Virus record (IMG/VR): IMGVR_UViG_3300045988_157791
Strand: one strand, 5' to 3'
Length of the DNA stretch: 64,000 nucleotides
Source of the DNA: a virus
Taxonomy: Duplodnaviria > Heunggongvirae > Uroviricota > Caudoviricetes
Shown: piece by piece, positions 35,852-63,947 of the stretch
How positions within the stretch are numbered: the first letter of the stretch is position 1
Layout: each line of letters begins with the position of its first letter
Notes under the pieces: generated by a model
What the model was told of the DNA's origin: nothing
Databases searched by the model: none
What the model saw: the letters and a program-made list of their open reading frames with translations, nothing else
Translations under genes and position numbers: made by a program

Positions 35852-36445
35852 TTACTGTTTGTTGTAAACAAAACCAATATCTTTCTTGTGAGGCATATCT
35901 GCTGCGGAAAAAGCTGCGATCTTCGCGAGTCGATCACATATTTCATTTTCACGATGCCCGGCGTGACCTTTAACCCACTTCCAGCGAACATTATGTCGAC
36001 TTGCAGCCTCATCCAGACGCTTCCACAGATCAACATTCTTTACCGGTTTTTTGTCAGAAGTCACCCATCCATTGCGTTTCCACCATTTCATCCACTGTGT
36101 CATGCCGTTTTTCAGATACTGGCTATCAGAGTGCAAAATAACGTTGCATGGATATTTCAAACGCTCCAGCCCGATAAGTGCCCCCATCATCTCCATGCGG
36201 TTATTGGTGGTGCTATGAAAACCATCTGAGAACTCGCGTTCCTCACCACGATACTGGAGAACTATACCGTAACCGCCCGGGCCACCCGGATTTTTAAGGC
36301 AAGAGCCATCACTGAAGATTTTCACGGTTTTAAGCTGGGGATTGAACTCTACGACAGGCGTTGTGGAATTGGTGCGGGGAGAATTTTTGTTTTTGGCTTT
36401 TTTGCGAGTTTTTTCTTGCGATCGGGCTGGTGTCTTCGTCGTCAT
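35852..36445 (-). CDS. rnhA: ribonuclease HI
   Basis: FSDGSCL.NPG..GYG, TNNRME, SDSQY, VKGHAGH..NE.CD motifs match RNase HI; ORF-track GTG start at 36499 replaced by ATG 36445 with AGGAG RBS. Confidence 0.8.
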
Positions 36446-36519
36446 ATAAACTCCTGAATCAAGCGCCGCGCCGATTTTTTTCCTCGCGCGTGCGCACACG
36501 CGTGCGTGTTAATAATTAT

Positions 36520-37030
36520 TAAAATAAACAAATTACTTCCCAGAACAGGTTTTTATAAACCTGAACTGAACGAACGAAGTGAGTGAAGTTCACCTCGAAC
36601 GAAGTGAGAGGTTGTCTTTTCAGGTAATACTCTCCCAGGGAGGTGAGTATAAAAATCCCTCACCAACCTGGTCGTTTCATAACCTGAAAAGTTATGGCCT
36701 AAGTCTACTGCCAGCTTAGACTTGGGAAGTTATGGATGACAGCACCCCAGAACCGAGATCTTCCCACACTTTATGAAGGGGAGTACTGGATTCAACCTCT
36801 CGAAACACCCCAGACTCGACAATCATAAAGTGACCCTTGTCTCCGCTCACTTTGGTTCCCCCTTCCCCGACACCTAAACGGCACCGGTTCTACGCTGGTA
36901 GTGAGCTTTTTTAAACCTGACGCCAGTGACGCTTACCCCCACCCATCAGGTCGAGTCTCCAGTCTACGACTGGAAACTATCAGATCTTAGCACTTACAAT
37001 TCACTTTATGAATAGTTTGTACTTATCTAT
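36520..37030. other. ~500 bp non-coding region with multiple stem-loops and short direct repeats (candidate ncRNA or cis element)
   Basis: No ORF >60 aa; direct repeat CGAACGAAGTGAG x2, hairpin GGTGAGTATAAAAATCCCTCACC, ACCCCAGA.CGA x2, terminal GCTCAC...GTGAGC + TTTTTT. Confidence 0.35.
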
Positions 37031-37260
37031 CATTTCGATTGATTATTTTCTCGACCATGTAGTTGAACATTCAAGGCAAACACCTCGTTAATCAACTCAC
37101 CTAAAAGCTGTTCAACAAGTTCGCGATGCTCCCCAAGATGCAAGCACTTAATTGCCCATTCGTACAAGTTGAAAGCCTGCTCGCGATCTTTCATCATTTC
37201 ACGGGCCTGGGCCAGAAAATCGCTCTCTACGAGCGCAACGACATTAGTCGGGTATGACAT
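37030..37260 (-). CDS. small hypothetical protein
   Basis: ORF track 37030..37284; ATG 37260 preceded by AAGGAAA. Confidence 0.35.
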   Translation of the reverse strand: MSYPTNVVALVESDFLAQAREMMKDREQAFNLYEWAIKCLHLGEHRELVEQLLGELINEVFALNVQLHGRENNQSK

Positions 37261-37365
37261 GTTAGTTTCCTTAAAGTGATTCATAAAATCGATTTTAAAG
37301 CGTCTGGGAAGGGGTTCTAGTGGATTCTGTAGTGATGTTCAGGTCTGGAGTCTCTGATACAAAAC

Positions 37366-37425
37366 AGCCTGCTTCCGTATATTAATAATTAATATGTAGT
37401 TATTTATATATACAGAAGCAGGCTA
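37366..37425 (-). terminator. long hairpin with AT-rich loop (copy 2), probable terminator of methylase gene
   Basis: GCCTGCTTCCGTATAT...ATATATACAGAAGCAGGC; on minus strand followed by GTTTTGTAT. Confidence 0.45.
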
Positions 37426-37445
37426 ATTACAGACGCCAGAACAAA

Positions 37446-38039
37446 CTAAGCAGCCTTCTTTGATGGTCTTTTTTTCCTGATCACATTCGCAGGATCATAC
37501 CCTCCCAGACTTTTCATGACGTCCAAAGGGATCTTGCTTATAGAGTGCCCAGCGTCCTGACAGAATCCTCGAAAAACAACGAGCATACTGCCACCTGGGT
37601 TGATGTTTACTTCTACCTGACCCAGATTGACGTCAGGCTCGACAAACGCTACGCGGCCACCAGACAGAATAATCGTCTCATTCGCACACTCTGTTGCACG
37701 CTCATACCACTTTGTATCTAGGGATTGAGGAATTAGCATCACTGTTGTAACTCCGCGAGCCTGCTCACGTATAGCCGCATCAATCCAGGGGGAGATTTTG
37801 GAGTAGGGTGGATTGAGGAAGGCAATTGTACCTGGCTGTCCCCATTCAGATTTCAAAGCATCACGCTCAACGCCTATGAAATTAGGCAGCTTTGCATTGT
37901 CCTTGTTGCAGGCAACGTCAACATCAAATGTCACTCCAAGATAACGTTGAATGGCAGAAAACAGCCAGTCAGGTGTTCTCCAGAGGTCACGAAGAGAGTT
38001 GTCGCGCTTTCGCTGTTTGATTTTTTCGGCTGCAATCAT
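37446..38039 (-). CDS. phage-type N6-adenine DNA methyltransferase (Dam-like)
   Basis: 197 aa with WRTPDWLF and FLNPPYS motifs. Confidence 0.7.
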   Translation of the reverse strand: MIAAEKIKQRKRDNSLRDLWRTPDWLFSAIQRYLGVTFDVDVACNKDNAKLPNFIGVERDALKSEWGQPGTIAFLNPPYSKISPWIDAAIREQARGVTTVMLIPQSLDTKWYERATECANETIILSGGRVAFVEPDVNLGQVEVNINPGGSMLVVFRGFCQDAGHSISKIPLDVMKSLGGYDPANVIRKKRPSKKAA

Positions 38040-63127: not shown

Positions 63128-63456
63128 TGATGCCCGCCAATTGGCGGGCATCTGTTCTCTGTAAAGGTGTCTGGCATCGTCTGGTTCGTTAACGTTTACT
63201 AAACCAATGGTGACAAAAATTAGTTATCTTTGAAAAATAAAGGTTGCATGAAAAGAAGGGGTATGCGTTAATAGCATCGTTGGTTTGCAAGACAGACCTT
63301 ATGTAAGCAGTTTTAGTAAAGCAGTCTCAGTTCAGTGTTATCTTCTGATTTCCCTTCTTCGTGAGTCTCCTCCTTAAGTGCCTAAGTAAGTCCCAATCTA
63401 TACAGATCAAATTCTCGCCGCACTATGTGGCTCACAAAATTAAGAAGGTAATATCT

Positions 63457-63672
63457 ATGTCTAATAAAATGACTGGTTTAGTAAAATGGTTTAACTCTGA
63501 TAAAGGCTTTGGCTTTATTTCTCCTGCTGATGGCAGTAAAGATGTTTTTGTACATTTTTCGGCAATTCAGAGTAATAATTTCCGCACTTTGGAAGAAGGC
63601 CAGCAGGTCGAATTCTCTATCGAGAATGGGGCTAAAGGCCCAGCAGCAGCAAATGTCGTTGCTCTAAGCTGA
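63457..63672 (+). CDS. CspA-family cold-shock protein
   Basis: [38 protein letters not shown] (RNP1/RNP2); ORF-track start 63361 rejected in favour of ATG 63457 with AAGAAGG RBS. Confidence 0.85.
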
Positions 63673-63947
63673 TTCAACGCTGATGATCCTCATTTCTACA
63701 ATAACGAAGACGGTGTAAGCCTGAGTGGATAGATTTGCAGGATTGTACAAGTTGAATAAATTAGCATGGTAAGGCCATGCTAATTAAATCGACACAACGG
63801 CCAGTTTATTCCATAAAAGTGAATTGCCCATTGTGGCGAAATGCGGGGTTGCCGCATGAATAGTCAAAGGCAGAAGCTAACTGCCGGCATGGCAAAACAA
63901 AGTGCGTAAGAGGAGTGACTTCCTCAACAAGCGCCATAATTCTTTAT

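Follow-up and report, generated by a model that had tools for sequence, protein, structure and literature searches.

What occupies the gap between the RNase HI gene and the Dam-like methylase operon of a 64,000-nucleotide viral sequence (IMG/VR record IMGVR_UViG_3300045988_157791, Caudoviricetes; this whole stretch is called the window below)? The gap runs from 36446 to 37029, 584 base pairs (bp), and all genes around it lie on the minus strand. A preliminary description, made from the letters alone, flagged 36520-37030 as devoid of credible open reading frames (ORFs) but rich in repeats and hairpins, wavered between a small RNA and a cis element, and proposed an Rfam scan, covariation, conservation among relatives and RNA-seq as ways to decide. 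We conclude that the gap very probably holds an independently transcribed gene for a structured non-coding RNA (ncRNA) of ~450 nucleotides (nt), read on the minus strand, like its neighbors, from ~36977 to ~36520 and specific to SSU5/pHCM2-type phage-plasmids. The flagged interval contains this element almost exactly, from the promoter at 37012 to the U-rich end at ~36520. Its sequence matches place the window itself among the SSU5/pHCM2-type phage-plasmids of E. coli. A 901-bp segment around the element has 100% identity to E. coli plasmids of ~110 kb, 97-98% to three Escherichia phages (Cyrano, PhiR41_1 and CMS-2020a) and 85% to Salmonella phage SSU5.

The region is kept among relatives, and kept better than the genes that flank it. 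With the gap alone as query, 687 plasmids in PLSDB match at 89-100% over window 36500-36955; they come from Klebsiella, Escherichia, Enterobacter, Salmonella, Citrobacter and Cronobacter. With the flanks included in the query, the same relatives are only 80-85% identical. Measured in 60-nt windows, 36544-36843 shows 92-100% identity to the copies from SSU5, Klebsiella and Enterobacter, and the central domain (36616-36832) is the best conserved DNA of the locus, at 97-100%; in the same comparison rnhA, an ORF of 76 amino acids (aa) and the methylase gene are 58-90% identical, mostly 65-85%. At the edges of the gap (36493-36544 and 36963-37022) identity is 44-68%, and the conserved block spans ~36533 to ~36955. 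Taken as a whole, the core (36535-36955) has 92-100% identity among relatives. These values show that the non-coding stretch is under much stronger constraint than the neighboring genes.

The RNA is present in 232 of 5426 complete E. coli genomes, and a distant blastn search of those 5426 genomes found phage-plasmid copies only, with no host paralogue. The same RNA, at 92%, is found in a Cronobacter element whose replicon type differs. Two scans, one of IMG/VR with an alignment of the small 76-aa ORF and one of metagenomes with a conserved 22-mer, brought the collection to 108 distinct homologues; the 22-mer scan yielded 56 true homologues, four of them in a divergent clade. This clade (the sequences we call L237-241, L263, L268, L288 and L302, and a plasmid of Enterobacter sp. 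CP102 from citrus soil) is ~69% identical to the window, yet alignable across the whole core. Could the high identity simply reflect the recent spread of a mobile insertion? We rejected this explanation: the locus is fixed, divergence is graded together with that of the flanks, and structure and promoter are selected. Exact copies of the most conserved 22-mer, ACAACCTCTCACTNCGTTCGAGG, turn up as well in four unrelated contigs from soil or peat metagenomes, L260, L281 (2462-2484), L294 and L295. We judged these matches to be coincidental rather than homologous; three are the reverse complement of a ribosome-binding site plus ORF start, and the other is a hairpin.

The hairpins noted in the preliminary description are genuinely stable. 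The minimum free energy of the gap is -184.6 kcal/mol on the minus strand (z = -5.2) and -151.4 kcal/mol on the plus strand (z = -4.1), and 0 of 100 shuffled sequences folded as well. We therefore asked whether evolution has preserved the pairing. RNAalifold, run on the distinct homologues, folded them into a multi-domain structure rich in compensatory double substitutions. The consensus structure, scored formally on 35 representatives, has 136 pairs in 17 helices; the controls were shuffled alignments and register-shifted pairings, which preserve phylogeny. Standard pairs fill 95.6% of cells, compared with 90.7% after shuffling and 37.5-50.5% after register shifts. Pairs changed on both sides number 33, against 24.5 +/- 2.5 in the shuffles (0 of 500 reach 33) and 3-9 in the shifted registers; cells changed on both sides number 198, against 41 and 12-33; and the covariation score is 0.193, against 0.114 and 0.04-0.05. 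Such compensatory double changes are what the covariation analysis was meant to look for, and they show, within this alignment, that at least nine helices maintain their pairing through them. Helices 2, 3, 7, 9, 12 and 14 each contain 3-7 double-change pairs (seven in helix 7, four in helix 12, three each in helices 9 and 14), and helices 9, 11 and 12 are 100% paired. The poor score of helix 13 is due to a 2-nt alignment shift; in register, UUCAGG/CCUGAA becomes UUCUGG/CCAGAA. It is the divergent clade that contributes most of the compensatory changes.

The pairing also has a direction. Independent RNAalifold runs gave -270.6 kcal/mol for the minus strand and -230.1 kcal/mol for the plus strand, and the same pairs are 95.6% paired when read on the minus strand and 84.8% on the plus. 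G-U cells outnumber A-C cells by 869 to 30 on the minus strand and by 581 to 73 on the plus strand, and four pairs are G-U in every sequence. This asymmetry implies a minus-strand RNA, since a DNA cruciform or a protein-binding site would lack it. In the segment 36675-36696 with 36616-36629, two mutually exclusive pairings are seen, and in the divergent clade each shows a single compensatory change. One is a local hairpin (CAUAAC/GUUAUG to CAUAGC/GCUAUG); the other is a long-range pairing, in which the change is the one just given for helix 13. These competing pairings may constitute a conformational switch.

A predicted promoter precedes the RNA, and the gene can be divided into the following parts.

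37007..37012, minus strand: -35 element TTCATA, 17-18 nt past the stop codon of the 76-aa ORF
36984..36992, minus strand: extended -10 element TGcTAAGAT, hexamer at 36989-36984
36955..36977, minus strand: 5'-terminal hairpin (-15.3 kcal/mol, z = -4.5), beginning exactly at the predicted start
36914..36952, minus strand: helix 2 hairpin with a G-rich internal loop; 15 pairs, 4 double-changed
36845..36906, minus strand: branched domain, helices 3-5; in helix 3, 3 of 7 pairs double-changed (UA/UG/CG, CG to UA, AU to GC)
36616..36832, minus strand: central domain, containing helices 7-14
36767-36832, minus strand: long hairpin of the central domain, helices 7/8
36723-36766, minus strand: three-way element of the central domain, helices 9-11
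36697-36721, minus strand: hairpin of the central domain, helix 12
36616-36691, minus strand: long hairpin of the central domain, helices 13/14
36535..36605, minus strand: 3' domain, a closing stem ACUUC/GAAGU with two hairpins (z = -4.5)
36520..36534, minus strand: U-rich tract past the last stem, probable 3' end region; conservation stops at ~36533
36446..36519, minus strand: spacer to rnhA, AT-rich and length-variable, with an alternating purine/pyrimidine tract (36485-36509) and an A run (36476-36482)

A simple threshold scan missed the promoter, which matches 8 of 12 consensus positions. Nevertheless, the arrangement TT[TC]A.., 17 nt of spacer of varying sequence and TA..AT is found just past the stop of the 76-aa ORF in all 108 distinct homologues (80 scored by script, and 28 Klebsiella-clade sequences, with a TTTACG -35, by eye). 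The TGn extension (TGnTAnnAT) is present in 80 of the 108; the Klebsiella clade has TAGAAT at the same 17-nt spacing. We infer that a sigma-70 promoter with an extended -10 drives the RNA and that transcription starts at ~36977, 7 nt past the -10. The E. coli clade is alone in having a GATC across the -10 hexamer (TAAGATC, 36983-36989), next to the Dam-like methylase gene. Other clades have TAAAATC, without GATC, so any control by methylation would be clade-specific.

The hairpin that opens the RNA occurs in at least seven different sequence versions at the same place among relatives, as might be expected of a protective 5'-terminal stem-loop whose sequence is free to vary. The loop of helix 2, GAUGGGUGGGGG, is by comparison invariant but for one G/A position (GGGGG or GGAGG), and its stem is compensated in Klebsiella (ACCUGA/UCAGGU to GUCUGG/CCAGAC). 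In the 3' domain the last hairpin changes from CAGGUUU/AAACCUG to CAGGG/CCCUG in Cronobacter and to CAGGGA/UCCUUG in L226, and hairpin 16 is swapped for a shorter, GAAA-capped one in the divergent clade. The 3' end, probably near ~36530, is the least certain part of the gene. The tract 36520-36534 is U-rich in most clades and less so in Klebsiella, and no canonical intrinsic terminator was called there in this clade. The stem plus T-run with which the stretch had been said to end was likewise not borne out: no terminator-like site was called within 36446-37029 on either strand, and the T6 run at 36909-36914, read on the minus strand, is an A-rich linker of the RNA. Beyond the 3' end, a 25-nt (CG/CA)n tract with Z-DNA potential adjoins the A run, and both vary in length among relatives (A5-A9). 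In three lineages in which cargo has replaced rnhA (L087, L143 and L154), the replacements break just beyond these two tracts, and 36476-36509 may be a recombination hotspot.

Is the RNA made? E. coli LF82 carries phage Cyrano as its plasmid, and strand-resolved RNA-seq data from this strain were re-analyzed by Misson et al. (PLoS Pathog 2023; PMC9928086). Cyrano's annotation places an ORF, CYRAN_81, at window 36716-36850 on the minus strand, inside the central domain of the RNA and with a GTG start. The authors list CYRAN_81 among the "morons", 12-fold over prophage background (PMC9928086). Its log2 FPKM (fragments per kilobase per million) values, in pairs, are 6.8 and 6.9 in stationary LB, 9.3 and 9.0 in B1 (the 1 hr sample), 6.9 and 6.9 in B6 (the 6 hr sample), 9.0 and 8.2 in macrophages at 1 hr, and 10.35 and 10.3 in macrophages at 6 hr (S1 table, PMC9928086). 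Its neighbors, in the same five conditions, reach 3.1-5.8 (CYRAN_80) and 2.6-5.0 (rnhA) (PMC9928086). There is thus a published signal at the locus, and by these per-ORF counts it is ~9-40 times that of the neighbors in five conditions covering lysogens and macrophages (PMC9928086). Counts so far above those of CYRAN_80 and rnhA imply a discrete, regulated transcription unit within an otherwise silent lytic module. The element's highest signal belongs to another "hypothetical protein", CYRAN_43 (Cyrano OV696614.1, probably outside the window), at 723-fold above prophage background (PMC9928086); this may again be a mis-annotated RNA, or else a toxin-antitoxin locus.

The transcript does not appear to encode a protein. 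As the preliminary description stated, no ORF in the gap is credible: only frames of 30-46 aa are present, mostly with GTG or TTG starts, and none is conserved across clades. CYRAN_81 itself is truncated in the Klebsiella clade, has another start in L226 and is absent from the L237 clade; a comparison of the gap between clades revealed no ORF common to all, and the indels in the alignment are single nucleotides, not multiples of three. Judged by this comparison, CYRAN_81 is a spurious ORF. RefSeq/PGAP leaves the region of the RNA blank, whereas the Cyrano and PhiR41_1 records call ORFs in it. On the other side of the element, the "putative ribonuclease H" of SSU5 (SSU5_090, L083 887-1651) is annotated at 765 nt, compared with 588-609 nt in most relatives; its start runs upstream into the 3' end of the RNA gene and is likely a wrong start codon.

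Nor does the RNA belong to a described family. Scanned with Rfam 15 (4227 covariance models) at gathering thresholds, the whole window gave only cspA (63279-63697). At E <= 10, the region 36300-37500 gave sub-threshold noise, the best score within the element being 16 bits against a threshold of 93; some miRNA-like noise matches are due to a separate hairpin at 37365-37425. The proposed Rfam scan, then, found no family match for the element at either setting. ARAGORN found 0 tRNA or tmRNA genes in the window, in agreement with the earlier statement that no tRNA-like T-loop or acceptor stem was present. The suggestion that the gap may encode a small RNA is supported as to the RNA, on the strength of conservation, covariation and the published transcript; at ~450 nt the RNA is not small, and it lies on the strand opposite to the apparent reading.

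A different RNA appears to sit at the same locus in another group of phage-plasmids. In the pCAV1099-111 type (group 2: L160, L161 and L242-244) the same gap is present, and the small ORF is 46-54% identical. The gap, however, holds a different ~430-nt sequence (L160 3265-3697), highly conserved within the group and unannotated, with no Rfam match. Right past the stop of the small ORF comes a promoter (TTTACT-17-TATGAT), followed by a 5' hairpin with covariation; the RNA ends in a canonical terminator, a 7-bp GC-rich stem with U7, which finishes ~20 nt ahead of the rnhA ribosome-binding site. The two RNAs are thus alike in locus (small ORF, RNA, rnhA), strand, size, position of the promoter and 5' hairpin, and they differ in sequence and in the canonical intrinsic terminator of group 2. 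We rejected homology between them: nhmmer gave no match, and local alignment scored z < 1 against shuffles. Nor did the group-2 syntenic gap yield any match to a covariance model built from the central 151 nt. A G-rich motif seen by eye in both was also dropped, as nhmmer, alignment and covariance model gave no similarity. On these comparisons the group-2 RNA is treated as a positional analogue rather than a homologue, and the arrangement suggests an exchangeable RNA "slot" of the replication/nucleotide-metabolism module. A more distant relative, L162 (3226-4650, a Moellerella wisconsensis plasmid), has the small ORF followed by a terminator, a 113-aa ORF, a ~970-bp unannotated gap and a type I restriction gene; it has no rnhA and no homologue of the RNA.

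These data can be combined into a model. Host RNA polymerase would start at ~36977 from the conserved sigma-70 promoter with its extended -10; the first 23 nt would fold into a protective 5' hairpin; and transcription or processing would stop in the U-rich stretch at ~36530, ~85 nt ahead of rnhA. The RNA might then act in trans through its fold in the plasmid-prophage state, as a protein scaffold, a sequestering RNA or possibly a catalyst. Fold-dependent action in trans is favored because conservation is near total over ~300 nt, including loops and junctions, and because the rest of the element offers no complementarity above chance: across the window and the remainder of a near-identical plasmid the longest exact complementarity is 12 nt, and shuffled RNAs give 11-15 nt. 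The same near-total conservation, loops included, fits a precise three-dimensional fold with proteins, or a catalytic core, in preference to a base-pairing small RNA (sRNA). A trans-acting, protein-binding mode is nevertheless offered only tentatively. We would be more cautious still in proposing a new class of large, complex-folded RNA (ribonucleoprotein scaffold, self-assembling RNA or ribozyme) that works in the plasmid state from an exchangeable RNA slot and controls lifestyle or host physiology; such control is suggested by the ~10-fold induction of the RNA inside macrophages.

Several points weigh against this interpretation. The transcript evidence consists of per-ORF counts, not coverage, and the source does not state whether counting was strand-specific. 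Most compensatory changes come from one divergent clade, with few independent events per pair, and the consensus structure was scored on the very alignment from which it was derived. A long-range helix, 36833-36843 with 36606-36612, has no support in the divergent clade. Both ends of the RNA are predicted positions, not mapped ones, and the 3' end in this clade has no canonical terminator, which would allow read-through into rnhA and a role as a leader. Lastly, it is the lack of alternatives that points to the protein-binding, trans-acting mode.

The RNA might instead be a long structured 5' leader that controls rnhA and the genes that follow, acting as an attenuator or as a riboswitch-like sensor: transcripts would mostly stop short of rnhA and would read through when a signal allows. 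It does lie on the same strand directly upstream of rnhA in all groups; no rnhA promoter can be recognized in the 85-nt spacer of this clade (by eye; a minus-strand scan calls none); the group-2 terminator is placed just before the rnhA ribosome-binding site; a signal ~10-40 times that of rnhA would suit a mostly-off attenuator; and the two exclusive pairings at ~36675-36696, each with its compensatory change, could be read the same way. Nevertheless, we consider a leader unlikely. L087 (betT), L143 and L154 keep the RNA fully conserved though cargo has replaced rnhA, and in the divergent clade a promoter-like TTGATC-16-TATGAT stands between the RNA and rnhA. In size and number of helices the RNA far exceeds known leaders, this clade has no canonical terminator/antiterminator pair, and no Rfam riboswitch matches. 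An immunity or incompatibility RNA resembling P1 c4, P4 CI and N15 CA, also part of the lytic operon transcript and silencing lytic genes by pairing or termination, seems improbable for other reasons: the RNA is five to six times larger than these and conserved over its full length, has no above-chance complementarity to the window or the rest of the near-identical plasmid and no relevant sub-threshold Rfam match, and recurs at 92% in the Cronobacter element with its other replicon type. What speaks for such a role is the setting, a phage-plasmid in which the RNA lies in sense inside a silent lytic operon and is still made in the lysogen, together with the unrelated RNA at the same site in the pCAV1099 group, which resembles the mosaicism of immunity regions and would confer another specificity.

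We give very little credence to a replication pre-primer of the ColE1 RNA II kind, in which the transcript would form an R-loop at the A run and be cut by the adjacent RNase HI to prime DNA synthesis. A ~450-nt structured transcript with G-rich invariant loops does end just upstream of an A run and beside an RNase HI gene. However, the element has RepA, a DnaE-type polymerase, a DnaB-like helicase, a 5'-3' exonuclease and a ligase, so that with a Rep protein and a Pol III-type replisome RNase HI is most simply explained by primer removal; neither an antisense gene like RNA I nor an Rfam RNAI match (E <= 10) was found; and the RNA persists without rnhA, while the A run and the adjoining tract vary in length. 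A DNA cis element (packaging, recombination or an iteron origin) or a small protein gene, CYRAN_81, is essentially excluded. Hairpins could form in DNA too, and ORFs are annotated here in Cyrano and PhiR41_1; but the compensatory changes and their G-U tolerance favor one strand, and the CYRAN_81 frame does not hold in the Klebsiella, L226 and L237 clades, where it is interrupted or shifted. The recombination or packaging site of the preliminary description accordingly gives way to strand-specific RNA pairs including G-U wobbles and a conserved upstream promoter, with the terminase and portal genes ~30 kb off. As for the short direct repeats, said to be dense, they do exist, as seven two-copy families of 11-16 nt, but such repeats often arise by chance. 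A single perfect 13-mer pair, CGAACGAAGTGAG, lies at 36571 and 36596, inside one of the RNA's hairpin domains; part of one copy is lost to a 7-nt deletion in the divergent clade, where the shorter GAAA-capped hairpin stands instead, implying that these repeats are not iterons.

How, then, does an independently transcribed, structured RNA of this size compare with those already described? The nearest likenesses are GOLLD and ROOL (with OLE and raiA as further members of the size class), which also exceed 400 nt and have many covarying helices; the window RNA shares with them its place on a temperate phage-like element, conservation that reaches into loops and junctions, and a function that cannot be deduced from sequence. 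It differs in having no covariance-model match to them, in belonging to phage-plasmids of Enterobacteriaceae rather than Firmicutes or Fusobacteria, and in the absence of tRNA genes from the window. GOLLD, as far as is known, is expressed during lytic growth; the window RNA, in contrast, is made in the lysogen and has a clear sigma-70 promoter of its own. The c4, CI and CA RNAs of P1/P7, P4 and N15 are, like it, ncRNAs of plasmid-prophages made in lysogeny and placed in sense within a lytic operon, but they are 70-100 nt, are excised from a longer transcript and base-pair within their own operon, whereas the window RNA has ~450 nt, its own promoter and no detectable target complementarity. ColE1 RNA II is also a folded plasmid transcript of several hundred nt, and its pre-primer function involves RNase H, whose gene adjoins the window RNA; here, however, there is no antisense RNA I, replication has a Rep protein and a Pol III-type replisome, and the RNA is kept when rnhA is lost. 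6S RNA and CsrB/CsrC are abundant and act in trans through shape and repeated protein-binding features, the mode that we think likeliest for the window RNA. It differs in having no Rfam match and a multi-domain fold instead of the one long bulged hairpin of 6S, and its GGA motifs occur at about chance frequency (a rough hand count).

We rate the RNA as a new family within a known kind, the large structured ncRNAs of mobile elements. In the literature on SSU5-type elements we found no sRNA, ncRNA or structured RNA reported at this locus, within a coverage that excludes most subscription journals and so leaves room for a prior description; a 2026 preprint about the copy number of phage-plasmids deals with a different family. 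Among bacteria and phages, large RNAs of many conserved helices are a rarity, and study of them has usually revealed unusual biochemistry, that of ribozymes, guide RNAs or cage-forming RNAs. Most of them occur in organisms that are hard to manipulate, while this one occurs in E. coli, Salmonella and Klebsiella. Its carriers include clinically relevant phage-plasmids that bear resistance genes, and lysogens express it, at levels that go up inside macrophages. Recognizing it as an RNA gene corrects records that leave it blank (RefSeq) or list it as a hypothetical protein and a "moron gene". Its promoter, its defined ends and the existence of a non-homologous counterpart in nature also make it a tractable system for the role of a large structured RNA in a phage-plasmid.

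The genes and signals around the RNA are as follows.

38039-37446, minus strand: Dam-like methylase
37365..37425, minus strand: terminator hairpin downstream of the Dam-like methylase; a perfect 18-bp stem (z = -6.5), then GUUUUGUAUC
37030..37260, minus strand: 76-aa helical ORF, the upstream neighbor, of a family without assigned function (PHROG 5343); stop at 37030-37032
35852..36445, minus strand: rnhA, RNase HI with a basic N-terminal tail, the downstream neighbor (Pfam RNase_H 1.6e-44; PGAP annotation)

The hairpin at 37365-37425 is probably an intrinsic terminator inside the leftward module, and would mark the upstream limit of the unit. The module around the gap also encodes NrdAB, ThyA, DHFR and a DnaQ-like exonuclease; the replisome genes named above lie elsewhere in the near-identical plasmid. 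A protein search of genome contigs with RNase HI returned only the chromosomal rnhA of unrelated bacteria and did not recover this locus. The 76-aa ORF is syntenic with the RNA in all groups. Its product has no Pfam family and a PHROG without assigned function; an AlphaFold2 model (predicted local distance difference test 73) is a small all-helical bundle, for which Foldseek gave no match better than E = 2. The idea that this protein is a Rop-like partner of the RNA was dropped on the same Pfam and Foldseek results. At the far end of the window, the cspA match is a full-length thermoregulator (63279-63697, plus strand, 185.7 bits) that precedes a CspA-family cold-shock gene with its coding sequence at ~63457-63672.

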